From NCBI GenBank assembly GCA_021804565.1, contig JAJZHK010000003.1:7043-71042 (forward strand): a stretch of DNA of 64,000 nt, read 5' to 3'. Each line of letters starts with the position of its first letter. The stretch's first letter is position 1. The stretch is from Pseudomonadota bacterium (lineage in GTDB: Bacteria > Pseudomonadota > Gammaproteobacteria > Pseudomonadales > Moraxellaceae). Of this stretch, positions 5,054 to 54,975 are shown piece by piece. Both the position numbers and the translations under genes were made by a program. Below the pieces are notes generated by a model. That model worked only from the letters and a program-made list of their open reading frames with translations. It was not told the origin of the DNA and did not search any database.

Positions 5054-5854
5054 TTATGATCGCGCCTTGGCTCGCACCTGAGCGCACAGTGAACCAAGAC
5101 CATCGAGCATGGTCGCGTCGGGCCGCTCCAGGGATGAAGTATCGGCATGCAGCCAGGGCAGCGTGCTCAGCGCCGGCGCCACCGACTGGTCTTCTGGCAC
5201 AATAACCGCCTGCAGGGGCTCCGTCAGCGTCCATTCGGACGAGACCTGCAACGCCGTACCATGCTCCCGGGGAGAACGCAGGCGCAGATGACAAAGCGCC
5301 AGGGCCTGGGCGACATAATGATCCGCCGCCAGCGTCATCAAAGGCTGCGGCCACACCTGAAAAAATACGTTCAGCCAAGCCAGTCCGCCGTACGCCTGCC
5401 GAAGGTGCAGCGCTTGCTGCTCAAAGTGCGCACGCAGACGCGCAGCGCGCAGCTCCTGACCGGCCAGGGCCCCCATGCGGCTGATGCTCGCGGCCACATC
5501 CTGCGGGCTGTGCGGGTCGAAGAAATAGAGGTTGAGATGCAGGCGCTGCAGGGTCTGCACCCGCCGTGGATCGATGCCACCGGTCCAGACCAAGACCTTG
5601 TCAGGGTGCAGGGCGAGCACCAGCTCGTCGCTCCACTGGGCTCCCCGCGCGATGTCAGGCACGCCAGGACAGGCCTTCTTGCCGCTCGGCTGCCCCACCT
5701 GAGCCAGCAGCAGATCACAGGCTCCGAGCTGATCGATGAGCAGGGTCAAAGCCGGCGCCAGACTCACCCAGCGCTGGCTGGTGCCAGGTCCCGCCAACGC
5801 CGACCCCGTCAGGCACAGGACGAGCAGGCTCGCGGCCCGCAACCCGCTGTTCAA
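5054..5854 (-). CDS. Periplasmic substrate-binding protein, BtuF/FecB-like (cobalamin or Fe-siderophore ABC family)
   Basis: ORF 5054..5953. It has a signal-peptide-like stretch LRAASLLVLCLTGSALA, followed by RWVSLAPALTLLIDQLGACDLLL and HPDKVLVWTGG, which are typical of class III periplasmic binding proteins. The start is uncertain. The TTG at 5854 overlaps the ampE stop (TTGA), whereas the ATG at 5953 would overlap ampE by about 100 nt. Confidence 0.55.
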   Translation of the reverse strand: MNSGLRAASLLVLCLTGSALAGPGTSQRWVSLAPALTLLIDQLGACDLLLAQVGQPSGKKACPGVPDIARGAQWSDELVLALHPDKVLVWTGGIDPRRVQTLQRLHLNLYFFDPHSPQDVAASISRMGALAGQELRAARLRAHFEQQALHLRQAYGGLAWLNVFFQVWPQPLMTLAADHYVAQALALCHLRLRSPREHGTALQVSSEWTLTEPLQAVIVPEDQSVAPALSTLPWLHADTSSLERPDATMLDGLGSLCAQVRAKARS

Positions 5855-6696
5855 AACAGCGGTGTATACAGGGTCAGCATGGCGAGCACGACGACCCAGA
5901 AAGTGCGGCAGCGATGAAACAGGGCCTGCAAACCCTGGATGCGCTCTTGCCATGGGGCACTGCCGGGGCCATCACCATCGCCCAGGGGGGGCCAGTGCAG
6001 GCTCTGCTCGACGAGGGCGGGCAGTAAAACATCGCTAGGCTCGAGGGTGCGCCAGGTCGTTTTGAGTGTATCGACACAAGCCAGAAAATCTCCCAGCAGG
6101 GCGATACTGACCATCAAACAGCGTCCCGGCAACCACTCGATCCAGAACAGCAGACGATCGAGCTCTGCCACCCAGGGCTGCTCCGGGTCGCTGCGCCGCG
6201 CCATGACCAGCAAGGCCACCGCAAGCATGCCCAAAGGGCCCAGCAAGACCCACCAGAACAAGGGACTCATGCGAAAGCGCAGGTGCCGGCGGCCAATCAG
6301 CAGGACCTGCTCCCGCAGGCGTGACTCATGCATCTCATGGGCCAGCAGCAGGCTGAGCTGGGCACCGTGGTCCGCGGCCACCGCCTCACCGGCGGCAGGC
6401 TCACCCGGCAACATGCGGGCCTCGGTGTGCGGGCCCAGAACGAGCAGGACCAGCAGGGCATTGAGTACAAAACTGGGCAGACCCCAGAGATGACCATGGA
6501 GAGCGTGCAAAAGCACCGCCAGCAGGAGCAGCGGCAGGAGCAGCCAGAGCAGAAGTCCCATCCAGGCACCCGCCGGCCAGCGGACACGGCGCACCGCACA
6601 CGCCGCCTGCAGGCACAGGTCGTCCACCAGGTCGAGGGCCGGCATCGGCGACCTCTCCTGCAGATAAAGAACCAGTAGCACCACCCACAGATTCAT
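5851..6696 (-). CDS. ampE: AmpE-like inner membrane protein
   Basis: 281 aa with multiple transmembrane segments. The N-terminus MNLWVVLLVLYLQER, the internal LRFRMSPLFWWVLLGP and the C-terminus VVVLAMLTLYTPLF align by eye with E. coli AmpE (MTLFTTLLVLIFERL.., INFRFYLAPLFWLIVGG, VVVVIIALLTIYGALV). No ampD gene lies upstream. Confidence 0.75.
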   Translation of the reverse strand: MNLWVVLLVLYLQERSPMPALDLVDDLCLQAACAVRRVRWPAGAWMGLLLWLLLPLLLLAVLLHALHGHLWGLPSFVLNALLVLLVLGPHTEARMLPGEPAAGEAVAADHGAQLSLLLAHEMHESRLREQVLLIGRRHLRFRMSPLFWWVLLGPLGMLAVALLVMARRSDPEQPWVAELDRLLFWIEWLPGRCLMVSIALLGDFLACVDTLKTTWRTLEPSDVLLPALVEQSLHWPPLGDGDGPGSAPWQERIQGLQALFHRCRTFWVVVLAMLTLYTPLF

Positions 6697-12306: not shown

Positions 12307-14487
12307 CTACTCGAAGCGGGCGCCCTCACGGGCCATACGGCGCAAGAGCTCGGGAGGAGCAAACCTGTCCTGGCCATAGCGTTCGGCCAGCGTGTCAGCT
12401 CGCGCGACAAAGGCCGGCAGTCCGATATAGTTGATGTACTGCAACTGCCCGCCCGTCCATGGCGCCATGCCGATGCCAAAGATGGAGCCGATGTTGGCGT
12501 CGGCCACCGAGCGCAACACCCCCTCTTCGTAACAGCGCGCAGCCTCGATCGCCTGACGCATGAGCAAGCGCTCCTGCAGCTCGGCAAACGCCTCGGGACT
12601 GGGCTGGGCCAGATCAGCTCGCGCATAATGTTCGCGCAGGCCTGGCCACAGACGCTTGGGAGCACCCGCCGGGTAGTCGTAAAAACCCGCCCCTTCTTTC
12701 TTGCCTGGCCGACCGAAACGCTCGCACATGGCGTCGATCACCGCCTCGGCAGGATGATCCGGCATGGACCTGCCCTCCGCTGCAAAATCTGCGCGCGTCT
12801 GCGCACGCACCTTGCGCGTCAGCTCAAGATTCACCTCATCGAGCACCGCCAGCGGCCCAACCGGCATACCCGCCTGCAAGGCAGCCTGCTCGATACTCGC
12901 CGCGGGGTAGCCCTCGGCCAGCATGGCGACACCCTCGTAACAGTAGGTGGCAAACACCCGCGAGGTGAAAAACCCGCGACTGTCATTCACCACGATCGGC
13001 GTTTTGCGGATTTTGAGCACAAAATCGAAAGCAAAACCTAAGGTCTGCGCCGAGGTCTTGTCGCCACAGATGATCTCGACCAGCGGCATCTTGTCGACCG
13101 GTGAGAAGAAGTGCAGACCGATGAAGCGCTCAGGATCAACAAAAGCCTGGGCCAAACCGGTGATCGGCAGGGTTGAGGTGTTGGACGCCAGCACCAGATC
13201 GGGACGCGCGACGGCCGCGACGCGCTGGCTGACCTCCGCTTTGACCTGACGATGCTCAAAAACCGCCTCGATGACCAGGTCACAGTCAGCCAGCGCGGCG
13301 TAGTCGCTACCGGCATGGATACGCGCCAGCACCTGTGCCGCCTTGTCCGCCGTCATCCGGCCTCGCGACACCCTTTTATCGAGCAGCTTGCGGCTGTAGT
13401 CACGACCACGCTCGGCCAGTGCATCCTCGCTATCGAGCAAAACCACATCGATGCCGGCGACGGCGGCCACATAAGCGATGCCCTGCCCCATCATGCCGGC
13501 ACCGATCACCCCGAGCTTGCGGCATTCACGGGCCGGCGCCACGTCCTGCGACGGCCGTGAGCCGCCACCATTGATCTTTTGCAGATCAAAGAAAAAGGCC
13601 TTGATCATGTTCTTGGCGACAGGACCGGTCGCCAGCTGGGTGAAGTAACGCCCTTCGATCAGCAGCGCCCTGTCGAAGTCGACCTGAGCACCTTCCACCG
13701 CGGCCGCCATGATGGCAGCAGGCGCCGGATAATGGGCATGCGCCCCTTTGAGCTGCTTGCGCAAGTTGGCGGGGTAAGCCGGCAGATTCATCGCCAAGGC
13801 TGGCGTCGAGGGCGTTCCTCCCGGCATTTTGTAGCCTTGGCGATCCCAGGGCTGCTGGCTGCTGGGATGGGCCTCTATCCAGGCGCGTGCTGCCGCCAGC
13901 AGGGCCTCCGGGGTGTCAACCAAAGCATCGATCAAGCCCAATTCATGCGCTTTTTCCGCCTTCATGCGCTGGCCTTGCAAGAGCACGTTCATCAAGGCGT
14001 TTTGCAGCCCCAGCATACGCACCGTGCGGGTCACGCCACCACCGCCGGGCAGCAGGCCCAGGCTGACCTCCGGCAGACCAAATTCAGCCTTTGCTCCCCG
14101 CACAGCGATGCGATGATGCGCCGCCAAGGCGATTTCAAAACCGCCGCCCAAAGCGGTGCCGTTGAGACAGGCCACCACAGGCTTGCCGAGCGTCTCGAGG
14201 ACGCGCAGTTGCCGCTTGATTTCACTGACGCCGGCCTGAAACTCGGCAGCCTGCTCAGGCTGTGCCGCCTGCAGGAGGCGCAGGTCACCGCCGGCAAAGA
14301 AGGTTTTTTTGGCGGAGGTGATGATCACCCCGCGAATACGGGCTTGCTCAGCCTGCAGGCGCGCCACGGTGGCCGCCATGGACTGCACATAGAGTGCGTT
14401 CATGGTATTGGCCGACTGCTGCGGATCATCCAGGGTCAGGGTCACGATCTGCTGGGCGTCTTCTTCCCAATGTATACTCGTCGTCAT
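12307..14487 (-). CDS. Multifunctional fatty-acid oxidation alpha subunit (enoyl-CoA hydratase / 3-hydroxyacyl-CoA dehydrogenase), second FadB/FadJ-like copy
   Basis: ORF 12307..14622. The ATG at 14487 (MTTSIHWEEDAQQIVTLTLDD) lies 25 nt after the thiolase stop. Domains seen: crotonase fold (FFAGGDL, LNGTALGGGFEIALA) and NAD-binding GVIGAGMMGQGIA. Confidence 0.88.
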   Translation of the reverse strand: MTTSIHWEEDAQQIVTLTLDDPQQSANTMNALYVQSMAATVARLQAEQARIRGVIITSAKKTFFAGGDLRLLQAAQPEQAAEFQAGVSEIKRQLRVLETLGKPVVACLNGTALGGGFEIALAAHHRIAVRGAKAEFGLPEVSLGLLPGGGGVTRTVRMLGLQNALMNVLLQGQRMKAEKAHELGLIDALVDTPEALLAAARAWIEAHPSSQQPWDRQGYKMPGGTPSTPALAMNLPAYPANLRKQLKGAHAHYPAPAAIMAAAVEGAQVDFDRALLIEGRYFTQLATGPVAKNMIKAFFFDLQKINGGGSRPSQDVAPARECRKLGVIGAGMMGQGIAYVAAVAGIDVVLLDSEDALAERGRDYSRKLLDKRVSRGRMTADKAAQVLARIHAGSDYAALADCDLVIEAVFEHRQVKAEVSQRVAAVARPDLVLASNTSTLPITGLAQAFVDPERFIGLHFFSPVDKMPLVEIICGDKTSAQTLGFAFDFVLKIRKTPIVVNDSRGFFTSRVFATYCYEGVAMLAEGYPAASIEQAALQAGMPVGPLAVLDEVNLELTRKVRAQTRADFAAEGRSMPDHPAEAVIDAMCERFGRPGKKEGAGFYDYPAGAPKRLWPGLREHYARADLAQPSPEAFAELQERLLMRQAIEAARCYEEGVLRSVADANIGSIFGIGMAPWTGGQLQYINYIGLPAFVARADTLAERYGQDRFAPPELLRRMAREGARFE

Positions 14488-44731: not shown

Positions 44732-47700
44732 TCAAGGCTGGACCGAGACGCTGGAGACCCCCAGTCCGATCACCTCGACACGAATCTGGGTGGGGATGCG
44801 TTCTTTCATCGCCTCGACATGGCTGATGACGCCTATGGATTTACCGGTCGCATTGATGCCGTCCAAAGCATTGAGGGCCAGTTCAAGACTGTCGGCATCC
44901 AAAGTCCCAAAACCTTCATCCAGGAAAAGCGAGTCTATCGACGTTCTCTGGCTGACCAGGTCGGAGAGCGCCAGCGCCAGGGCGAGACTGACCAGAAAGC
45001 TTTCGCCACCCGACAAGGTACGGGTATCGCGGGTGATATCCGCCTGCCAGGTGTCGGCAATTTCCAGTTCCAACTCGCCGCTTGATTTGCGCTGCAGCAG
45101 ATAGCGGCCATGCAGTTGCACCAGATGCCGGTTCGCCAGATGCATCAGGTGGTCCAAGGTCAGCCCTTGGGCGAATTTGCGGAATTTGTCGCCCTCTTTG
45201 GAGCCGATCAGGCCATTGAGCCGCTGCCAGATATCGACATCCGCCGCTTGCCCGGCAATCTGCTCAAACAGGGCAGCCTGCTTGTCCCGGCGCTGTGCGT
45301 CATCGCCTAACAGCGCCATTTGCGCACCCTGTTCGGCGGAGAGCTTCTGTCGCTGTTCATCCTGCGCGCTGATACGCGCTTCGAGTTCGGCCAGGCTCAG
45401 CGGCGTCAGTGCCTGTTCTTGCCACTGACGCTGCGCCGCGGCTGCGGTTTGCCGTACAGCTTGGCTGCGCTCGAGTTCTTGCTGCAGCTGTTGGCGCAGG
45501 GCGAGCAACTGCTGGCGGGTTTCAGCGGGTAACAGGGCCTGCGTGAAGGCCGCCAGGTCAGCAAAAGGACTTTGTGCCCATGCCGCGAGCCAAACGCTGT
45601 GGGCGCTTTCGCACTGTAGCTGCTGGGCTTGTCCATCGACGACCAATTGCGCTTCCTGGCCCTGCAAGGTGGCGATCTGTGTCGCCAGCTGCTCAACTTG
45701 CGCGCTGCACAGCTCAAGCGCGGCCTGACTGGCGGTGATGGGGCCATCATGCGATGCTGCGGGTTCATCCCGCAGGCCCCAGCGTTTTTGCCAGACCCGT
45801 TTCTGGCTGACCGCCTGCTCGCTGCGCTGCTGCTGTTTTTGCAAGTTGCTGCTTTGTTGCTGCTGGGCCTGCTGCTGCGCCTGCCAACTTTGCCAGTCTT
45901 GCTGACGATCTTCCAGCCAGCGGCTCATGTCCCCGGCGGGCACAAAACCTGCGTCGGCCATGGCGGCAGCGAGCGCCTTCACGGCCTGCTGCCGGGCCGC
46001 GGTATCTCTGGCTATTTGCAGGTCCAGCTCGCGGATACGCTGGGCGGCCAGATCATGGCTTTGCTGCAGTAGCGCCCCTTGCGCATCGGCAGCTTGCCGC
46101 TGTGCCGCGTGCGCCGCTTCGCTTTCGCGGGCGCTCACAAGGGCCTGCTGCGCCGTCTCGGCCTGCACCAGCGCGGCTTTTAGCGTCGCTTCCTGCCTGA
46201 CCCTGTCGTCCAACCCTTGCCTGAGCACATCGGGCTCTTGCCAGGCGCTGGCCGCCAGCCCCAGGGCCGGCGCCACGGCATCCCAGCCGGCCTGGAGCTC
46301 TTGCTGGGTACGCAGCTGCCCGGCGAGCGTCTGCCGGTCCTGCGCCAGTCGGCCGCTCAGTTGACCGACCTGGCCTTGAATCGCCTGGCCCAGCTCCAAG
46401 GCCTGCTGCAGAGCCTGGACTTTCTCCTGCAGGGCCAGCTCCGTGGCCGATACATCGATCTGCTGATAGTGATGAATGCCAGGGTGGTCGGACGAGCCGC
46501 ACAGCGGGCACGCCTCGCCAGGCTGCAAGCCTGCGCGGAGGGCCTCCAGGCTCTGTATGCGCAGCTCCTGCTGGAGCAGCTTGCGCTTATCGTCGACCTG
46601 CTCTTGCCGCTGACGGTAGGCTTGGCGCGCAGCCTCCAGCGCGCCCTGATGCTCGGTGAGCTGCTGCTGGACTGCCGCCATATGCAGATCCTGTTCGCTG
46701 CATTGCCTGCGGTTCCGCTGCAAGGGCTCGGCCAGAGCGCTGAGGCGCTGCCAGGCCAGGAGCTGCTCCTGGGTGCGCTGCCAGCTCTCACGCAAGGCCG
46801 GCAGGGTCCTGCCTTGCAAGCGCTGCTCGAGCTGTTGCTCTGCGTCGGCGACGAGCTTCTGGCTCTCTGCATGGCGCGCCTGCGCCTGCCGCTGGATCTG
46901 GCGTTGATCAGCCATCCGCGTCACCGTCTCGGCTTGCGCCTCGGCCTGCTTCTGCCGCTGCACCTCGAGGTCCAGGATCGCCTGGCGGGCTTGCTCTAGC
47001 TGCCGATGTTCGAGCTGCCAGCCGCCCAGCTTCTCACCCAAAACGGCAAAGTGGGCGTGCCTGATCTGCCAGGCTTCCAGCTGTTCAAGGTGCCCCTTTT
47101 GCTCTTGCCACAGCTGTTGCTCGCGCTCGGCCAGGCCTTCGGCCAGTGTTTTGGCCTGCCAGCAGGCGCTGAGCTCTTGCTGGCGTGCGGCAGCCAGCGC
47201 TGCCCGCACCCTGTTCAGGTTGGTGTGGGTGTGCTGCAAACGCTGGTCGGCGTCCCTCCAGGCTTCAAAAATCGGGCGTATGGCTTCAGCAGGCTCGCTG
47301 AGCTCCAGCTGTTGCAGCTGGGGCTGTGCCGCCTGCAAGGCGCCGATGGCGGCGTCTTCTGCCTGCTTGGCGCTGAGCAGCGCTTGTTCGGCCAGAGCCT
47401 GCTGCTGACGCCATAGGCGTAGCTCCTGAAGCTGTCCGAGCTCGTCGTGCAGGACGGCCAGGCGCTGCGCCAATTCAGCGATCTGCGCCTGCATCGACAG
47501 GCGCTTTTCTTCAGGCAGCAGCTCGACACCATCGGCTTTCGCCTGCAGCTGATCGAGCGCGTTCTTCGCGTCGCGTGCCTGTTCAAACACGCACTGCGAA
47601 ATCTGCCCGTAGATGTCGGTGCCGGTCAGCTCCTCAAGCAGCTCTGCGCGCTCATTGGCACTGGCATTCAGGAAGGCCGCAAAGCCGCCCTGGGCCAGCA

Positions 47701-48151
47701 TCATCGACTTGGTGAAGCGGCCAAAATCGAGGCCGGTGATGGTCTCGATACGCTTGAGCTTGTCGCTGCTGTGGCTGCTCAGGATCGTGCCCTGGCCATC
47801 GGCCAGCTCGACCTTAGGAGGCTGCAGGGCCCCGTCGGCTTTATCACGGGCACGCCGCTGACTCCAGAATGCGCGATAAATCTGGCCCTTCACCTCAAAC
47901 TCCACCTCGGCCAGGCAGTCGGCTGTATGCCGGCTCATGATCTCGTTGGCCGTGGCAGAAATCGATTTGAGGCGGGGTGTTTCGTGGTACAGCGCCAGAC
48001 AGATGGCGTCCAGCAAGGTGGTCTTGCCGGCCCCCGTCGGCCCGGTGATGGCAAACAGCCCATTGTCCCTGAAGGGGGCTTGTCTGAAATCGATCTTCCA
48101 CTCACCCTTGAGTGAGTTGAGATTTTTAAGGCGCAGGGTGAGGATCTTCAT
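44732..48151 (-). CDS. sbcC: Exonuclease SbcCD, ATPase subunit (SMC-like, coiled-coil with zinc hook)
   Basis: ORF 44732..48211. The ATG at 48151 (MKILTLRLKNLNSLKGEW..) overlaps the sbcD stop (ATGA). Motifs: Walker A GPTGAGKTTLLDAI, zinc hook CPLCGS, signature LSGGESFLVSLALALALS, and Walker B LFLDEGFGTLD. Confidence 0.92.
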   Translation of the reverse strand: MKILTLRLKNLNSLKGEWKIDFRQAPFRDNGLFAITGPTGAGKTTLLDAICLALYHETPRLKSISATANEIMSRHTADCLAEVEFEVKGQIYRAFWSQRRARDKADGALQPPKVELADGQGTILSSHSSDKLKRIETITGLDFGRFTKSMMLAQGGFAAFLNASANERAELLEELTGTDIYGQISQCVFEQARDAKNALDQLQAKADGVELLPEEKRLSMQAQIAELAQRLAVLHDELGQLQELRLWRQQQALAEQALLSAKQAEDAAIGALQAAQPQLQQLELSEPAEAIRPIFEAWRDADQRLQHTHTNLNRVRAALAAARQQELSACWQAKTLAEGLAEREQQLWQEQKGHLEQLEAWQIRHAHFAVLGEKLGGWQLEHRQLEQARQAILDLEVQRQKQAEAQAETVTRMADQRQIQRQAQARHAESQKLVADAEQQLEQRLQGRTLPALRESWQRTQEQLLAWQRLSALAEPLQRNRRQCSEQDLHMAAVQQQLTEHQGALEAARQAYRQRQEQVDDKRKLLQQELRIQSLEALRAGLQPGEACPLCGSSDHPGIHHYQQIDVSATELALQEKVQALQQALELGQAIQGQVGQLSGRLAQDRQTLAGQLRTQQELQAGWDAVAPALGLAASAWQEPDVLRQGLDDRVRQEATLKAALVQAETAQQALVSARESEAAHAAQRQAADAQGALLQQSHDLAAQRIRELDLQIARDTAARQQAVKALAAAMADAGFVPAGDMSRWLEDRQQDWQSWQAQQQAQQQQSSNLQKQQQRSEQAVSQKRVWQKRWGLRDEPAASHDGPITASQAALELCSAQVEQLATQIATLQGQEAQLVVDGQAQQLQCESAHSVWLAAWAQSPFADLAAFTQALLPAETRQQLLALRQQLQQELERSQAVRQTAAAAQRQWQEQALTPLSLAELEARISAQDEQRQKLSAEQGAQMALLGDDAQRRDKQAALFEQIAGQAADVDIWQRLNGLIGSKEGDKFRKFAQGLTLDHLMHLANRHLVQLHGRYLLQRKSSGELELEIADTWQADITRDTRTLSGGESFLVSLALALALSDLVSQRTSIDSLFLDEGFGTLDADSLELALNALDGINATGKSIGVISHVEAMKERIPTQIRVEVIGLGVSSVSVQP

Positions 48152-49377
48152 GGCTTCGACGCCTGCAACTGCGCGAGGATGTCGAGGTAGCGTATCCGCA
48201 ACGGCGCGCACAGATCGTCCTCCAAGGCTTCCTGCTCCAGTCGCTTGTTGAACACCTCGAGGGGGCTCAGTTCATCCAGTGTCACCTTGAGAGTCGCAGG
48301 CAGGGTCGCTGCACGATCAGCGCGCTGCCGCCGCAAACGCAGCACCTCCACCGGCAAGCCGGCCGTCATCGCCTCGATACGCGCTTGCAAATCGCTCAGG
48401 TAGTCATCGCTTTGTACCTGCACATCCAACCATACCGGTCGTTCGCCACCACCGCGCTGAGCCGCCTCGCGGATCTGCAGGGCCAAGGACGGCAAATCCC
48501 CCTGTACCGAGACCAAAGCCTGAAAACACGGTACCGCCAAGGGTGAAACGGCCACCAGGCCGCTGTCGTCGAGGTCGACCAGAAGCACCTCCTGCTGACG
48601 GTTCGCCTCATCAAAACTCAAGGGGATAGGCGAACCGCTGTAGCGGATATGCGCTTGCCCTCCGACCTTTTGCGGCTTATGGATATGCCCGAGCGCGATA
48701 TAGTCCGCCGCCGGAAAGGCAGCGCTTGGAAAGGCCTGCAAGGCCCCTACATAGATCTCCCGCACCGACTCACTGGCACTGGCACCCACCGTCGTCAGAT
48801 GACCGGTCGCGACGATAGGCAAGGATAGACCGAGGCGCTCTCTTTCCTGGCAGGCCCGCTGATACACCTGTTCATAGTGTTGAGCGATGGCCTCTTGCAG
48901 GCCCAACTGCTTTTCTTCGGCGCTCTGTCCGGCCCGGCTTTGCTGAACATCACGTGGACGGATATAAGGGATGGCGCAGAGGATGGCAGCGGCTGTTCCA
49001 TCACGCTGCCTGAGCACCAGCACCTGCTGCTCGATGCGCTCAGCCACGGCAGGAATGACGGTGGTGCCCAAACAAGACAGCAACTGTCGGCTTTCGCTCA
49101 GGGTCGCCACCGAGTCGTGGTTGCCGCCCAGGACCCACAGTGAAACGCCTATGGATCGCAAACCTAAAACCAGGTGGTTGTAAAGCTCACGCGCATAACT
49201 GGGCGGTGAGCCTGTGTCGAAGATGTCGCCGGCGATCAGAACGGCATCGACCTGCTGCACCTGAACCTGCTCGATCAGCCAGTCGATGAGCGCTTGATGC
49301 TCATCCTGACGGGTCTTGCCCATAAAATGCTGACCCAGATGCCAGTCAGAGGTGTGAAGGATACGCACAGGCGACAT
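48148..49377 (-). CDS. sbcD: Exonuclease SbcCD, nuclease subunit
   Basis: 409 aa. Calcineurin-like phosphoesterase motifs: ILHTSDWHLG, IAGDIFD, GNHD, and TGHL. Confidence 0.92.
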   Translation of the reverse strand: MSPVRILHTSDWHLGQHFMGKTRQDEHQALIDWLIEQVQVQQVDAVLIAGDIFDTGSPPSYARELYNHLVLGLRSIGVSLWVLGGNHDSVATLSESRQLLSCLGTTVIPAVAERIEQQVLVLRQRDGTAAAILCAIPYIRPRDVQQSRAGQSAEEKQLGLQEAIAQHYEQVYQRACQERERLGLSLPIVATGHLTTVGASASESVREIYVGALQAFPSAAFPAADYIALGHIHKPQKVGGQAHIRYSGSPIPLSFDEANRQQEVLLVDLDDSGLVAVSPLAVPCFQALVSVQGDLPSLALQIREAAQRGGGERPVWLDVQVQSDDYLSDLQARIEAMTAGLPVEVLRLRRQRADRAATLPATLKVTLDELSPLEVFNKRLEQEALEDDLCAPLRIRYLDILAQLQASKP

Positions 49378-49525: not shown

Positions 49526-49915
49526 CTAGAACAGCCAGGACTTGGGATCTTCTACAGCCTGGGACTTATCCAGAGACTTCATGCCCTTGATGCATCGGAC
49601 CGAGAGCCAGACTACCCACAGCAGCCATATAAAGTAGCCGATCAAGACGATGGACAAAAGCACGATAAAGGGAAAAAATATAAGCCCTATCCAGAAGGTG
49701 CGGATCTGAAACTCGAAATGTGTCTGCAGCCAGTCCGGACTATCGGATTTGTGCACATAGGCGAGCACCACACCGACAATTCCGGCCACACCGGTAACAA
49801 TCCCCAAAAGATAAAGAATATACACCAACTTGGCCTTGGCTGCGCTGCCGCTTTTGTCCTCACGACTCACCACATCAGCATCTTGTGAAAATGAATTATT
49901 CATAAAAATATCCAA
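49526..49915 (-). CDS. Small integral membrane protein (three or four TM segments; DUF4870-like by pattern)
   Basis: 129 aa with hydrophobic helices (LVYILYLLGIVTGVAGIVGVVLAYV, TFWIGLIFFPFIVLLSIVLIGYFIWLLWVVWL). Its G+C content is intermediate between the core and the island. The family name is from memory only. Confidence 0.55.
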   Translation of the reverse strand: MDIFMNNSFSQDADVVSREDKSGSAAKAKLVYILYLLGIVTGVAGIVGVVLAYVHKSDSPDWLQTHFEFQIRTFWIGLIFFPFIVLLSIVLIGYFIWLLWVVWLSVRCIKGMKSLDKSQAVEDPKSWLF

Positions 49916-50229: not shown

Positions 50230-52620
50230 CTAAGTCAGAATAGAAACAAATTCGCCAAGAACTCTTAAATTTTTTGCTTGATCTTCTGTTAGTGCCATGA
50301 CCTTATATCCAAGCGCACTGGTTTTCGGACGCAACACAATATTCGAGGAATAGAAGTTATAATCTTCGGCATTAACCTGCTCTCTATGATACTCCCTCAC
50401 CGCATAATGCCCGCCTTGTTCAACATCGATAATATCTCGATATTGTACCAGCACAATCTTCCCTTCGCATGATTCTCCAGAGCCAGATTTAAAAAGGCAC
50501 CATGAACCATTGGGAATACGTTTATTCATGGATTCGCCAAGAACTTGCGCAACAAAATACCCCTCGGCCATGCGGATATGACCTGGCAATTCTACCCAAT
50601 CAAAATCACCCGTCGCCAAGTATTCACTGAAGTCAGCCGTGGTTATTCTCAGATCATAAACAGGAACAGCATTGTCAAAGGGCCGTACATCTTGCCTGGG
50701 TAAAATACGCAGATTTAAATCAGGATACCTCTCTTGCAGAGTCATTTCATGAGATTTTTGGGTCTGCGCAAGCAGTTTCGAAAAATACGCATTGGTCTCC
50801 TGGTCTGTGCAAAAAATATAGCAACCTTTTTGTCCTCGCGTCATGAGTGCTCGATAGGTATTTTTAATAATTTCATCAATGACTACGGCGCTTTCTTCAG
50901 GATTTTCTTTCAACATCTTTTTGTAACCCTTGATGGTTTTATCTCGGCCATCGCGACTGCCCGCATCAGTCACAACCTGACCATGGCGAACGACCAGATC
51001 AGGACCAATAATGACGCCAACATAATCCACCTCCAGTCCTTGGCAGGTATGAATGCAGCCAATTTCACGCACTGACTCCGGCGAGATGATCCAGAGGCTC
51101 CCATCAGTTGATAGATTCCATTGCGCCTCAAAGCCATGCTCAGGAATTCTGATATCCATTGCATATCTGTCTTTCTTGCTTACCCACTTCCAGCAATATC
51201 CAGCTACCAGTCGAGCTTTATTGTTGATGGCATTTTTTCTGAATATTTCCTCCCGCAATTTAACCGGAGAATCGAATACCCTGAAATCATAATCAATGTT
51301 CTCTAGCGTCGAGTTGGCCGTCTCACGTATCTGTAGCGCGGCATCCAGCCATGCCAGGTAGCCATCAGAGCCATTACAGCGAAACTGCGATCTTAACTCC
51401 ATGCGATGAAGATTAGCATCCAGTTTATTAGACCAAAATTGAATTTCATCAAGAGAACCGACATCATTTAAAGTGACACGCTGCCTTTCATCAAGAAAAA
51501 AAACAGCAAGCTTTGATGCATTGATAATTTCTTTGATCTGGTTTTCACCATAATTGCCGTACAACCCTGACTTCTCATTGAGTCTGTGTGCCTCATCTAC
51601 AATAAGTGCATCAAAAAAGTCAGGAACCGTACCGATATAAGAGCCAGAGCCCTTGAACATATTATTTATTTTTGTTTTAGCCAGCGTTCCGGTCAGCTTT
51701 GCAGCAAATACTGCACGTGGTGCAGCATTCTTGGAAACATACTGTGTGGTCATTTCTCGCCTGGTCAGCTCAACCAACAAGTTGATGGCTACTACAGATT
51801 TTCCTGTACCCGGACCACCTTCGACAATCAAAACTTGTTTTCGACCTTTCTGCGCCTTATGCGCCAGATCAATAGCCGTCTCGTAAACCAGTTTCTGATC
51901 ATCGATCATCAGGAACTCCTGTTGACCGCTCAGCATAGCAGTAAGGCTATCAGCCAGCCCTTTGGAGGGTTTTATTCGGCCATGCTCGATACGGTACATG
52001 ATATTGTCGCTATCACCGTACTTGACATGTTTCTTAAGAAATTTAGACAGCTTTCTAGCATCTGAGGAAATAAAAACAGGCGCCTTACTGGTGTGCGCAG
52101 CATAGAAAGGATCATTAACCGCAGAGTCCACAGAAAGATTGTGCAGGTAGGCACAGGGCATGAGCCTTATGTCTTCATGACGGACTGTTTCATTATAATC
52201 TTCTATCAGGGCTGCATAAGTCCAGGCCTGATATGAAGGATGACTTGTTTCCCTTTCAGAACCAGCTAAAAAGGTGAGCACAACGCCATCCTTATGAGTT
52301 CTTTTTACTTCACTCCATTGCTTGAGTTCGATAATAATAGCGGTATCATGCCTGCTTTCATCCTTACCTGTCAGGATAAAATCGATGCGCTTGCTGGTTA
52401 GTGGCAAAACGTACTCAATAGAAACACCAGAGTCTTCAGGAATATCGGGATCAACCAGCACCTTAAACATGTACTGCATGGAGTTTTTCCATGAAAGCAC
52501 TTCATTTTTAGATGGGCGCTTGAATAATTTCCTTTCAAACTCAGAGAGAATGATGCTTTCTATGGCATTCATGCCGACATCTTCAATAAACTTTCCCTTG
52601 CTACCACTGTATACCAGCAT
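50230..52620 (-). CDS. Fusion protein: PD-(D/E)xK nuclease-like N-terminus + DUF2075/Schlafen-type P-loop ATPase (SF1 helicase-like) + C-terminal S24 LexA/UmuD-like domain
   Basis: Track ORF 50230..52626 starts at a TTG; the ATG at 52620 (MLVYSGSKGKFIEDV) lies 2 nt after the upstream stop. The N-terminus reads RIDFILTG..AIIIELKQW (D..E-x-K). ATPase motifs: Walker A VEGGPGTGKSVVAINLL, Walker B ALIVDEAHRL, AGYCWKW, and IHTCQGLEVDYVGVIIG. The last 148 aa align by eye to the LexA C-terminal domain (VPVYDLRITTADF / YFVAQVLGESMNKRIPNGSWCLF / GKIVLVQ / YAVREY / IVLRP / LRVLGEFVSIL). Confidence 0.85.
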   Translation of the reverse strand: MLVYSGSKGKFIEDVGMNAIESIILSEFERKLFKRPSKNEVLSWKNSMQYMFKVLVDPDIPEDSGVSIEYVLPLTSKRIDFILTGKDESRHDTAIIIELKQWSEVKRTHKDGVVLTFLAGSERETSHPSYQAWTYAALIEDYNETVRHEDIRLMPCAYLHNLSVDSAVNDPFYAAHTSKAPVFISSDARKLSKFLKKHVKYGDSDNIMYRIEHGRIKPSKGLADSLTAMLSGQQEFLMIDDQKLVYETAIDLAHKAQKGRKQVLIVEGGPGTGKSVVAINLLVELTRREMTTQYVSKNAAPRAVFAAKLTGTLAKTKINNMFKGSGSYIGTVPDFFDALIVDEAHRLNEKSGLYGNYGENQIKEIINASKLAVFFLDERQRVTLNDVGSLDEIQFWSNKLDANLHRMELRSQFRCNGSDGYLAWLDAALQIRETANSTLENIDYDFRVFDSPVKLREEIFRKNAINNKARLVAGYCWKWVSKKDRYAMDIRIPEHGFEAQWNLSTDGSLWIISPESVREIGCIHTCQGLEVDYVGVIIGPDLVVRHGQVVTDAGSRDGRDKTIKGYKKMLKENPEESAVVIDEIIKNTYRALMTRGQKGCYIFCTDQETNAYFSKLLAQTQKSHEMTLQERYPDLNLRILPRQDVRPFDNAVPVYDLRITTADFSEYLATGDFDWVELPGHIRMAEGYFVAQVLGESMNKRIPNGSWCLFKSGSGESCEGKIVLVQYRDIIDVEQGGHYAVREYHREQVNAEDYNFYSSNIVLRPKTSALGYKVMALTEDQAKNLRVLGEFVSILT

Positions 52621-52622
52621 AA

Positions 52623-52970
52623 TCAATATTCCGTGTATTTTTTTGAGCTGCCCCTTACCTTGTCTTCTGGGTATTTAGACTCATTTATTTTAATTTTTCT
52701 TGTCGCTGCCTCGAGCAGGTCAACATCCATCTGATCTGCCAGGCGCAGCAAATAAAGAAAAACATCTGCCATTTCCTCTACCGCAGCCTTACGTTGCTCC
52801 TGCGTCAGATGCCTTGACTGCTCCTCAGTGAGCCACTGAAATACCTCCAGCAGTTCGCCTGCTTCACCCGCCAAAGCCATAGACAAGTTTTTCGGGGAAT
52901 GAAATTGGCCCCAATCACGTGCCAGTGCGAATTTTCGAAGATTTTCTTTGATTTCATTGAGACAGTTCAT
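52623..52970 (-). CDS. MazG-like all-alpha nucleoside triphosphate pyrophosphohydrolase, DCTPP1 (dCTP pyrophosphatase)-like
   Basis: 115 aa. FALARDWGQFHSPKNLSMALAGEAGELLEVFQW..EEMADVFLYLLRLADQMDVDL..NESKYP..RGSSKKYTEY aligns by eye with human DCTPP1 (ERDWEQFHQPRNLLLALVGEVGELAELFQW..EELSDVLIYLVALAARCRVDL..NRRRYP..RSSSRKYTEL). The metal-binding E-x2-E and E-x2-D motifs are present. Confidence 0.85.
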   Translation of the reverse strand: MNCLNEIKENLRKFALARDWGQFHSPKNLSMALAGEAGELLEVFQWLTEEQSRHLTQEQRKAAVEEMADVFLYLLRLADQMDVDLLEAATRKIKINESKYPEDKVRGSSKKYTEY

Positions 52971-53343
52971 TGATTATGTCCATATCGCAGCAGATCATTC
53001 TTGTGCGGATGGAGTGTCTGGCCCTGCAACAAACCGCCAAACTCACAACCCACCCATGCCCAAGCTTCCCTTCATCACCCAATCCATATTTGCACACTTA
53101 ATCTATCAGCAAAAGTCATGCTGCAATCGCTGCAGAACATTTCCGGCAGAAAGCAGTTCTCATCAAGCGGTCATAGACACCCTGCAGAAGATGACTCTCG
53201 TCTTCTTGCGCTTAATATCGGCGTCAATCCATGAGCATACCATGATCCATAGATCTTCATAGCATCTCATACCCAGCATTGAGCAAGTCATGTCATAAAT
53301 AGCATGCCTGCATTTCGGATGAAAAGAGCACCCCTAAGCTAGC

Positions 53344-54060
53344 TCAGAGGCTATGCAGGGTGTCTGACCACCATAGCGCACACATTGCGATTTGGTGTGT
53401 GCGCTGACCCTTGTCTGATAAGCAGAGCGATCCATGCTCCAAGAGGCGCAGGAGTTCCATGAACACCTTGCCATTCAGTTTGCCTTCATGCACCATAAGT
53501 CGCTGCAAACCCTGAGCACTGATAGCAGACAACATCAAGCCCTCCGCTGGTGTCATTGCCACCGGAGTATTGTACGGTTGCCCCGGAACTCCATGCATAA
53601 CACGCAGAGCCCATGCCAGCTGCTCTGCCGTCTCGTTCTGCCAGACGCTCACCAGCTGAGCATCCCGTGGACCAACGCTATACGGCGACTTTTGAACCAT
53701 AGCCCCCATGATATGTATCAGCCGGCTGAGGAATGCGAGGGGGGTCAACTGCTTGCCAAATTTCATTGCGAGCTCTCTGCCGCCGCCCTGCTGACTTCAT
53801 CACCTAATTAAACTGTGTGGCACGAAGGACCCATCCTTCCGCATCTGTGCTAGCCCGCATATTCCTCTTCATTGCCCTTGGAGAGATACCCAGATAGAAA
53901 TACGCCTGCTCAGCCTCCTGAAGCAAAGGCTACCAACCACGTGGTGAGTGACCCGGCCTTTTTTATAATACCCGGTGACCGCATCAAGCGATCGGGCATC
54001 GAGATACCTGATGAAGCGTGTACTTTTGTAATCTGAACTGTGCAGATAGTGCTGAATCAT
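53344..54060 (-). pseudogene. Frame-disrupted remnant of a DDE (rve-like, IS3/IS481-type) transposase
   Basis: Two short minus-strand ORFs lie in different frames. ORF 53869..54060 contains LDAVTGYYKKGRV..FRRLSRRISIWVS, resembling the D-x-T-Y..D-x-x-SR-x-I-x-W region of rve integrase cores. ORF 53344..53766 begins with a ..LTPLAFLSRLIHIMGAMVQKS.. segment, resembling the region following HSD-x-G-x-QY. This is by-eye similarity only. Confidence 0.35.
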
Positions 54061-54884
54061 TACAGAGCACCATCATACCTGACATGCCTAATGCCAATTT
54101 TGTGGTTTTACTTTGTAAGACCCTAGTACGCACACTGTCTCAAAAGCGCCTCTGCGCTCAATAGCTACGGCATTGAAAGAGATTTTTGATGGGCTATTGG
54201 CTTTCCCGCCGGAAACCAGGGCCTTGGCCATGCCAAGAATAGGCACACCAACAAGTGCAATGGACACGGAAGGATGAGCTCCAAGCCATGCACTTAGAAC
54301 CTAGCTTATTGTGACAATCACAGACACAGCTGCTCCGGCATACCGACCGTGCTTGGTAATGTGATGGATTTCCAGGACAGTAAGAATGTTTGATTCAAAC
54401 ACACTCTCTTCAGAGGCTAAGCGGTGGGCTTGCTCTTGCTCTGTCATACGGAAAATGTGCTCAGCACCATCAGGAATTATTTGCCCAAATCCAGCCTAGG
54501 CCTCTGCAGGAGGCAATGGTCCTGACCAATTATGGGGTCTTGTGGGGGACTTACTTGCCGGCGTTGAGCCGGCTCTTCGCGCGCGATGACACGACGAAAA
54601 TCTCCCCCTACCCGCTCCCAGAGAGCTGCTCATGGCATTTCTGTCGCTACGAGCGACCGAGGATAACTCTATCGTATTGGCAACTGGTGGACTGGAGAAC
54701 AGCAGACCAGGAGCGACTACCCCCTGCCAGCAGGCTGCCCAGTAAGCGCGATTTTTTCCATGAAAAAATCCCATCCTGCCCGCTCTAGTGACATTAATCC
54801 CAAAAGGTACAAGCGCCACGAATAATGAATTGCTCATTGGGCAAGGCGCCAAAGACTTTTTATGGAGCGCTTAGAAAGAACAAA

Positions 54885-54975
54885 TGGCGGAGAGGGTGGG
54901 ATTTGAACCCACGGTAGGGGAAACCCCTACTTCGGATTTCGAGTCCGACCCGTTCAGCCGCTCCGGCACCTCTCC
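54885..54975 (-). tRNA. tRNA-Ser (anticodon CGA)
   Basis: The reverse complement is GGAGAGGTGCCGGAGCGGCTGAACGGGTCGGACTCGAAATCCGAAGTAGGGGTTTCCCCTACCGTGGGTTCAAATCCCACCCTCTCCGCCA. It folds into a cloverleaf with a 7-bp acceptor stem, anticodon loop CT-CGA-AA, a long variable arm (class II), T-loop GGTTCAAATCC, and an encoded CCA. Confidence 0.93.

Follow-up and report, generated by a model that had tools for sequence, protein, structure and literature searches.

A putative two-gene anti-phage module coupling a DCTPP1-type pyrophosphatase to a nuclease-like, DUF2075 helicase and S24 fusion protein in a Moraxellaceae contig

A stretch of 64,000 nucleotides (nt) of contig JAJZHK010000003.1 (positions 7,043 to 71,042, assembly GCA_021804565.1, Moraxellaceae; the window in what follows) carries two adjacent minus-strand genes, encoding a small MazG-like enzyme of the DCTPP1 type (gene 1) and a large protein in which a nuclease-like N-terminus, a DUF2075/Schlafen (SLFN) helicase and a degenerate S24 domain are joined (gene 2). 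The two genes most likely constitute a horizontally mobile module defending against phages or other mobile DNA. In the form to which we give slightly better than even chances, gene 2 would be the nuclease-helicase effector of a module directed against phages or mobile genetic elements, gene 1 would act on dCTP-type (probably 5-modified) nucleotides, and in most relatives S24 autoproteolysis would couple the effector to RecA bound to single-stranded DNA (RecA-ssDNA), a coupling lost in the window copy. The evidence comes from domain homologies, the conservation of motifs, the linkage of both genes, their island context and the degeneration of S24 in this copy, and it is from these that the activities and the defence role are predicted.

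52623-52970, minus strand: gene 1, 115 amino acids (aa), MazG-like, DCTPP1-type all-alpha NTP pyrophosphatase (PF12643, PDB DCTPP1 matches, PHROG 3301)
50230-52620, minus strand: gene 2, 796 aa from the ATG, stop codon at 50230-50232; nuclease-like N-terminus, DUF2075/SLFN helicase and S24-like domain

Only 2 nt separate the stop codon of gene 1 from the ATG of gene 2 (junction TGAttATG), and the GC profile gives 0.43-0.45 over 50-53 kb versus about 0.61 in the remaining window; open reading frames (ORFs), junction and composition thus agree with an earlier reading made from the sequence alone (the sequence-only reading), which had described two genes 2 nt apart in a low-GC island. The TTG at 52626, which that reading had offered as an alternative start with a 4-nt overlap, is discarded in favour of the ATG at 52620, because the homologues of gene 2 all open with M[IL]VYS.

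The pairing of both genes is widely conserved. A scan of one genome per species (185,579 species genomes) confirmed at least 586 gene 2 loci, and in a sample of 80 of them the MazG-like gene was directly adjacent on the same strand at 62, a linkage of about 80% after allowing for flank length; the co-occurrence of the two gene families, proposed earlier as a check, was therefore found. The linked loci belong to Gamma- and Betaproteobacteria, Verrucomicrobia, Bacteroidota, Nitrospira and other taxa. The MazG-like gene usually lies upstream, with a spacing of -4 to 61 nt and frequent 4-nt overlaps. A swapped order is seen in the Halomonas group, where the MazG-like gene follows about 90-110 nt downstream; the adjacency is kept all the same, which is a classic sign of functional coupling. 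Moreover, the pair is kept down to 26-35% identity of the large protein, and it is found in Archaea (Halalkalicoccus jeotgali plasmid 1, NC_014298.1) as well as in viral-contig records. No third conserved gene was found around the pair.

Some individual loci depart from this layout. On Halalkalicoccus jeotgali plasmid 1 (2648-6051) the pair is followed, on the same strand, by a gene of the endonuclease/exonuclease/phosphatase family, which may be a third component specific to this lineage. A Polaromonas sp. locus carries two MazG-like genes within 7 kb (5594-5938 and 12807-13139), one adjoining the DUF2075-S24 gene and the second 4.4 kb downstream. On Hymenobacter canadensis plasmid NZ_CP114769.1 (3001-6987), a DNA methyltransferase and a DUF4747 gene precede a tandem of two S24-less DUF2075 paralogues, which share 56% and 35% identity with the window protein; a MazG-like gene was not detected at this locus. 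Finally, at three metagenomic loci devoid of DUF2075 a conserved protein of about 704 aa is encoded directly downstream of the MazG-like gene, and it may be an alternative large partner of this enzyme.

Gene 1 matches the Pfam MazG-like family PF12643 with 54.9 bits (cut-off 27) and the pyrophosphatases of PHROG 3301 with an E-value of 2e-18. Among PDB sequences (phmmer), mouse and human DCTPP1 (2a3q, 6sqw, 7mu5) are matched at E 1e-23 to 1e-20, in an alignment that spans residues 4-114 and includes GEAGELLE, EEMADV and the C-terminal GSSKKYTE tail; the likeness to DCTPP1 noticed by eye, down to the acidic motifs and the SSKKYTE tail, is borne out by this comparison. The metal-binding acids E36, E39, E66 and D69 (E-x2-E … E-x2-D) are present, aligned to the same residues of DCTPP1, and invariant across 26 partner genes of other genomes, as are W20, F23, H24, W46, K92, N96, Y100, P101, K111 and Y112. 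Thus gene 1 shares with mammalian DCTPP1 (RS21-C6) the Pfam family, the full-length alignment, both acidic motifs and the C-terminal tail, but it is a bare 115-aa core, and nothing comparable to its fixed pairing with a helicase-nuclease has been described for DCTPP1. By homology, its substrate would be of the dCTP type, most plausibly a 5-modified dCTP. The pool-depleting defence enzymes dCTP deaminase and dGTPase are unrelated to gene 1 and provide a functional analogy only.

The features of the N-terminal and central parts of the large protein are as follows.

51871-52620, minus strand: N-terminal domain of gene 2 (residues 1-250) with a PD-(D/E)xK-like motif; E40, E69, D80 (52381-52383), E98 (52327-52329) and K100 (52321-52323)
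50803-51840, minus strand: DUF2075/Schlafen group-3 superfamily 1 (SF1) helicase core (residues 261-606; PF09848)
51796-51819, minus strand: Walker A motif GPGTGKS; the Walker B motif is VDEAHRL

The helicase core matches PF09848 (DUF2075/SLFN-g3 helicase) over the whole profile (positions 1-354 of 354; E 5.9e-103, 345 bits), and both GPGTGKS and DEAH are invariant among the homologues, which are found full-length in many phyla at 47-83% identity. A full-length AlphaFold (AF2) model of moderate confidence (pLDDT 67) retrieved human SLFN11 as the top Foldseek match (7zep, E 3.5e-9), followed by the SF1B helicases Dna2, RecD2, Dda and Upf1; a profile of the whole protein against PDB sequences gave nothing at E 0.01. 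The three modules that had been read into gene 2 have fared unequally: the DUF2075 helicase is confirmed outright and S24 at the level of the family, the S24 domain of the window copy itself falling below the Pfam cut-off, as detailed below.

Residues 1-250 have no Pfam match in the window copy. The D..E-x-K motif recognised there by the sequence-only reading has nevertheless held, D80 and E98-x-K100 being invariant in 77 homologues; E40, E69 and the longer E98-L-K100-Q-W are invariant or nearly so. In the full-length model the motif residues are located on an alpha-beta-beta-beta-alpha-beta core, in the order known from PD-(D/E)xK nucleases. When 27 homologous N-terminal domains were compared with Pfam, the commonest weak match was the PD-(D/E)xK family NERD (8 of 27), and further scattered weak matches were to Endonuc_Holl, MTES_1575, Herpes_UL24 and DUF2726. 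The PADLOC candidate PDC-S41, treated below, also matches this region. The N-terminal domain is, to judge from the motif, the predicted order of secondary structure and these matches, a probable PD-(D/E)xK nuclease.

Defence systems with this core architecture are already known. Among validated ones, the nearest in architecture is Nhi (SERP2475) of Staphylococcus epidermidis, in which a PD-(D/E)xK nuclease and a DUF2075 helicase degrade phage replication intermediates and the C-terminus is poorly conserved and glyoxalase-like (bioRxiv 10.1101/776245); the 'Nhi-like' protein described by Millman et al. 2022 has the same organisation. Gene 2 shares with both an N-terminal PD-(D/E)xK-like motif followed by a DUF2075 (PF09848) SF1 helicase, and also the occurrence on islands and plasmids near other defences. 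In contrast, the PADLOC model of Nhi matches the window protein in its helicase core alone, the N-terminal domains having no detectable similarity, and Nhi is a single gene, whereas the relatives of gene 2 usually have a MazG-like partner (at the 62 of 80 loci given above) and a C-terminal S24 domain.

PADLOC gave partial matches only for the window proteins, to PDC-S41 (E 1.8e-15), Nhi (1.5e-9) and AbiO (1.8e-8). The best of these, PDC-S41, is an unvalidated single-gene candidate; its match (54 bits) runs from residue 24 to 312, that is, the N-terminal domain and Walker A, against profile positions 21-288 of 657, and stops short of the S24 region. The Nhi model is matched by residues 253-416 only (35 bits), and the AbiO match is likewise limited to the helicase core. 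Neither PDC-S41 nor AbiO is known to be defined with a MazG-like partner. In the literature searched, no paper links a DUF2075/Schlafen-type helicase in a defence setting to MazG, to a dCTP pyrophosphatase or to S24, and the earlier view of the pair as a candidate undescribed system agrees with both searches. The pair appears to be a credible, so far undescribed form of nuclease-helicase defence of the Nhi type, in which the new elements would be the MazG-like partner and the built-in S24 switch.

Human SLFN11 and the other group-3 Schlafens belong to the same helicase family (PF09848), and there is a conceptual parallel in a Schlafen-type helicase tied to the sensing of ssDNA or replication stress. 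Gene 2 differs from the Schlafens in lacking the Schlafen (AlbA_2) RNase domain, the place of which is taken by the PD-(D/E)xK-like motif; the recent papers on bacterial Schlafen defence concern that RNase domain, not the DUF2075-type helicase. Further, an earlier paper (PMC6765204) notes modification-dependent restriction enzymes with DUF2075 NTPases as neighbours, a loose fit to a partner that acts on nucleotides with modified cytosine.

The C-terminal domain is where the window copy departs from its relatives.

50233-50670, minus strand: S24 (LexA/UmuD-like) C-terminal domain (residues 651-796), degenerate here
50635-50643, minus strand: Thr-Thr-Ala at the position of the self-cleavage site (residues 660-662); A-(A/C)-G in relatives
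50530-50532, minus strand: Ser697 of GESM, the position of the S24 nucleophile, retained
50395-50397, minus strand: Arg742 (codon AGG) in place of the S24 general-base Lys

In the family the domain is canonical. PF00717 is matched by all 27 homologues sampled (best E 8e-12), and a profile of the homologous S24 domains retrieves no PDB structures other than LexA, with AAG aligned to VAAGEP of LexA and GESM to GMSM. Residues were counted in 71 homologues with S24: 70 have Ala at position 660, and at position 661 there are 62 with Ala and 8 with Cys, the window being the sole exception at both; position 662 is Gly in at least 90%, from which the window again deviates (Ala). The nucleophile position is Ser in 71 of 71, within GHSMEP in the Bacteroidota members and in one 33%-identical relative, and position 742 is Lys in 70, with Arg in the window alone. 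LexA is cleaved at Ala-Gly and UmuD at Cys-Gly, and the alternation of Ala and Cys before Gly among the homologues parallels this difference. Hence the homologues share with LexA, UmuD and lambda CI (peptidase S24) the A-(A/C)-G site, the Ser of G-x-S-M and the Lys of T-V/I-K in canonical order and spacing, but here the domain is fused C-terminally to an enzyme instead of to a DNA-binding domain.

The window copy differs from these peptidases by its T-T-A site, by the Arg replacing Lys and by its score against PF00717, 19.1 bits for the whole protein and 22.9 for the domain alone, both under the Pfam cut-off of 23.3. It deviates at 9 of 28 strongly conserved S24 columns (median 0 and maximum 4 in the other members) versus 0 of 72 conserved columns in the N-terminal domain and 3 of 128 in the helicase (Fisher p = 3e-7 vs S24), so that degeneration is limited to the switch and the presumed catalytic parts are still under constraint. 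Judged by these residues, the S24 domain of the window probably cannot self-cleave, and, as regards the DNA-damage or replication-intermediate gate that the sequence-only reading had assigned to S24, a gate of RecA-triggered self-cleavage would not work here as proposed.

In addition, 6 of 77 gene 2 homologues stop just before S24, and 4 of these 6 retain the MazG-like partner; S24-less relatives with a MazG-like partner also occur on archaeal plasmid, viral-contig and phage records. The degenerate domain of the window and these S24-less homologues that keep their partner indicate that S24 is an old, widely retained and dispensable regulatory add-on, and suggest that the core activity is independent of cleavage; a modulatory or safety role of cleavage would then be favoured over an obligatory activation step. 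As a part of the module, S24 is accordingly genuine in most relatives, but accessory. No LexA box (CTGT-N8-ACAG, at most one mismatch) was found near the operon, and matches to the box across the whole window are below chance expectation. Promoter-like sites at the operon do not exceed shuffle expectation, and none is convincing.

The surroundings of the pair in other genomes are those of variable islands. In a survey of 121 flanking proteins from 38 loci with PADLOC models, matches were obtained to AbiEi/AbiEii, type IV methyl-directed restriction enzymes, SoFic, PbeA and several candidate systems; enrichment near known defence genes had been named earlier as a point to check. Flanks differ from genome to genome, and homologues of gene 2 are also found on plasmids of both Bacteria and Archaea. 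The viral collections yielded 3 distant IMG/VR relatives and 4 matches in phage records, none with S24; a phage origin was rejected on account of this rarity and of the lack of S24 in these few matches.

In the window, the islet that carries the pair extends from about 49.95 to 54.88 kb, between a tRNA gene on one side and host-like sbcCD on the other.

54885-54975, minus strand: tRNA-Ser(CGA) (ARAGORN), edge of the low-GC islet
44732-49377, minus strand: sbcC (1159 aa, SMC-like) and sbcD (409 aa), directly beside the low-GC islet

Neither an integrase nor a flanking or att-type direct repeat of the tRNA-Ser end was found at the islet borders. Apart from the pair, the islet comprises about 1.9 kb (52971-54884) of 51-52% GC with short ORFs only, and family searches with the small ORFs at 53.0-54.9 kb gave no match; this part has the appearance of an integrated element after erosion. 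The gene 2 protein is found in identical form, with the same neighbours, on three further metagenomic contigs.

From these data a working mechanism can be outlined. Gene 2, as a PD-(D/E)xK-type nuclease with a Schlafen/DUF2075 SF1 helicase, would load onto foreign replication intermediates and degrade them, by analogy with Nhi. The co-translated product of gene 1, presumably constitutively active, would have dCTP-type nucleotides as its substrates for hydrolysis, with 5-modified dCTPs the most plausible, and its effect could be either to deny modified-cytosine phages their precursor or to keep modified nucleotides from re-entering host DNA after the action of the nuclease. In most relatives, the protein would cleave itself at A-(A/C)-G, presumably under stimulation by RecA-ssDNA, and so release the helicase-nuclease from the S24 domain; this could switch the effector either on or off. 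In the window copy the switch would be disabled (T-T-A, Lys to Arg) with the nuclease, helicase and MazG-like motifs intact, and the module probably functions without cleavage.

The most far-reaching version of this proposal is a widespread two-gene immune system of bacteria and archaea, in which a Schlafen-type helicase-nuclease would be licensed or stood down by LexA-like autoproteolysis upon RecA-ssDNA of phage replication and a DCTPP1-type enzyme would destroy the modified dCTP of the phage; taken as a whole, we consider it unlikely. If true, it would mean an immune system combining attack at the nucleotide level with attack at the DNA level. Validation of the module would add a new defence system, present at no fewer than the 586 loci confirmed in the scan, and a new regulatory principle, with an S24 autoprotease inside the immune effector itself rather than in a repressor. 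A Schlafen-type helicase would be tied to ssDNA sensing in prokaryotes as in humans, as a prokaryotic counterpart of the replication-stress sensing by SLFN11, and DCTPP1-type enzymes would gain a role in conflicts with viruses; if directed against modified-cytosine viruses, this role would place the evolution of DCTPP1 in a context open to testing. Since both the pair and the S24 fusion are deeply conserved, the module is a good target for experiments, in which the window copy, non-cleavable by nature, and the S24-less homologues could serve directly as genetic controls of switch function.

Several points weigh against the favoured reading. The linkage is incomplete, about 14 of the 18 unlinked loci in the sample having informative flanks yet no MazG-like gene. 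In the reverse test, which took the 80 closest metagenomic MazG-like loci, DUF2075 is a neighbour at no more than about 21, and at least 40 lack it although there is room on either side; the neighbours of the unlinked genes are heterogeneous and mostly housekeeping (argH, ArsR-type regulators, RlmJ, AsmA), and the MazG-like partner may reflect a general need for house-cleaning and not an immune function. That the enzyme would be specific for modified dCTP is an extrapolation from the mammalian DCTPP1, and an unregulated small pyrophosphatase would be an odd choice for a pool-depleting effector. For the large protein, a model of the N-terminal domain alone (shallow alignment) reached a pLDDT of 50.5 and gave no meaningful Foldseek match. 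Finally, the PADLOC matches of the pair are partial and weak and do not make it a member of a validated system, and its defence-gene neighbours are raw matches, uncorrected for background.

The linkage is one-sided, since the large gene nearly always has a MazG-like neighbour and the MazG-like relatives are mostly alone. Thus the tie between both genes claimed by the sequence-only reading stands when viewed from the large gene, but not from the small one, DUF2075 being absent next to about three quarters of its nearest relatives in metagenomes. Phylogenetically, MazG-like sequences cluster by linkage, the state of the nearest neighbour being shared in 104 of 131 cases (68 expected, maximum 90 in 1000 permutations), with no clean separation of linked from unlinked. 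The MazG-like subfamily is thus a recruited general enzyme. Its use as a diagnostic marker of the system was rejected, most close relatives being unlinked and no residue separating linked from unlinked copies.

The general nature of the small enzyme also bears on a different reading, that of a module for SOS repair or genome maintenance, in which S24 would tie the helicase-nuclease to RecA-ssDNA at damaged or stalled forks of the host and the MazG-like enzyme would sanitise the dNTP pool of oxidised or modified dCTP. S24 domains are classically linked to SOS and that of the relatives has every catalytic feature, DCTPP1-type enzymes are house-cleaning enzymes with most close MazG-like relatives in housekeeping contexts, the protein matched best in structure, SLFN11, is responsive to replication stress, and the islet of the window adjoins sbcCD. 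However, the adjacency to sbcCD is not shared by the other loci examined and appears coincidental. A patchy distribution, a low-GC islet at a tRNA gene, flanks that vary between genomes, the presence of AbiE, type IV restriction enzymes and SoFic among the neighbours, and copies on plasmids and in viral-contig records do not fit a maintenance function either, nor do the missing LexA box near the operon and the dispensability of S24 in several lineages, and we hold this reading to be quite unlikely.

A selfish toxin-antidote (addiction) module, in which the toxicity of the helicase-nuclease would depend on a nucleotide kept low by the MazG-like enzyme, the pair stabilising its island or plasmid and any effect on phages being incidental, is improbable as well. 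The tight, often translational coupling of a small enzyme with a large, potentially toxic nuclease would suit it, and so would the location of the pair on plasmids and islands, beside other toxin-antitoxin pairs; moreover, one Nhi homologue was toxic when expressed (10.1101/776245). Nonetheless, the roughly 14 informative loci with the large gene but no MazG-like gene would not be expected of an essential antidote, and the literature search found no precedent for a MazG-type antidote to a helicase-nuclease; defence and addiction are, besides, not mutually exclusive. Least of all do we favour a decaying remnant with no current function in this genome, which is very unlikely: the S24 cleavage site and catalytic Lys are gone with 9 of 28 conserved columns altered, integrase and att repeats are missing from the islet, the other ORFs of which are short and unmatched, and no convincing promoter was found, but both ORFs are intact, all MazG-like, nuclease-like and helicase catalytic motifs are kept with the decay confined to S24 (0/72 and 3/128 deviations elsewhere), the identical protein recurs in the same context on three metagenomic contigs, and natural S24-less homologues imply that the core can stand alone.

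Two small genes of the window lie close to the putative defence pair.

53344-53766, minus strand: 140-aa ORF, within the islet and upstream of the MazG-like gene
49526-49915, minus strand: small membrane protein, 129 aa, weak DUF4870 match; between sbcD and the gene pair

The 140-aa ORF had no match in Pfam, NCBIfam, PADLOC or PHROG, and a terminator-like hairpin follows it (53351-53330). It is kept on the three identical metagenomic contigs and is not beside the pair in other genomes. The 129-aa membrane protein is also encoded on the metagenomic contigs with the identical gene 2 protein.

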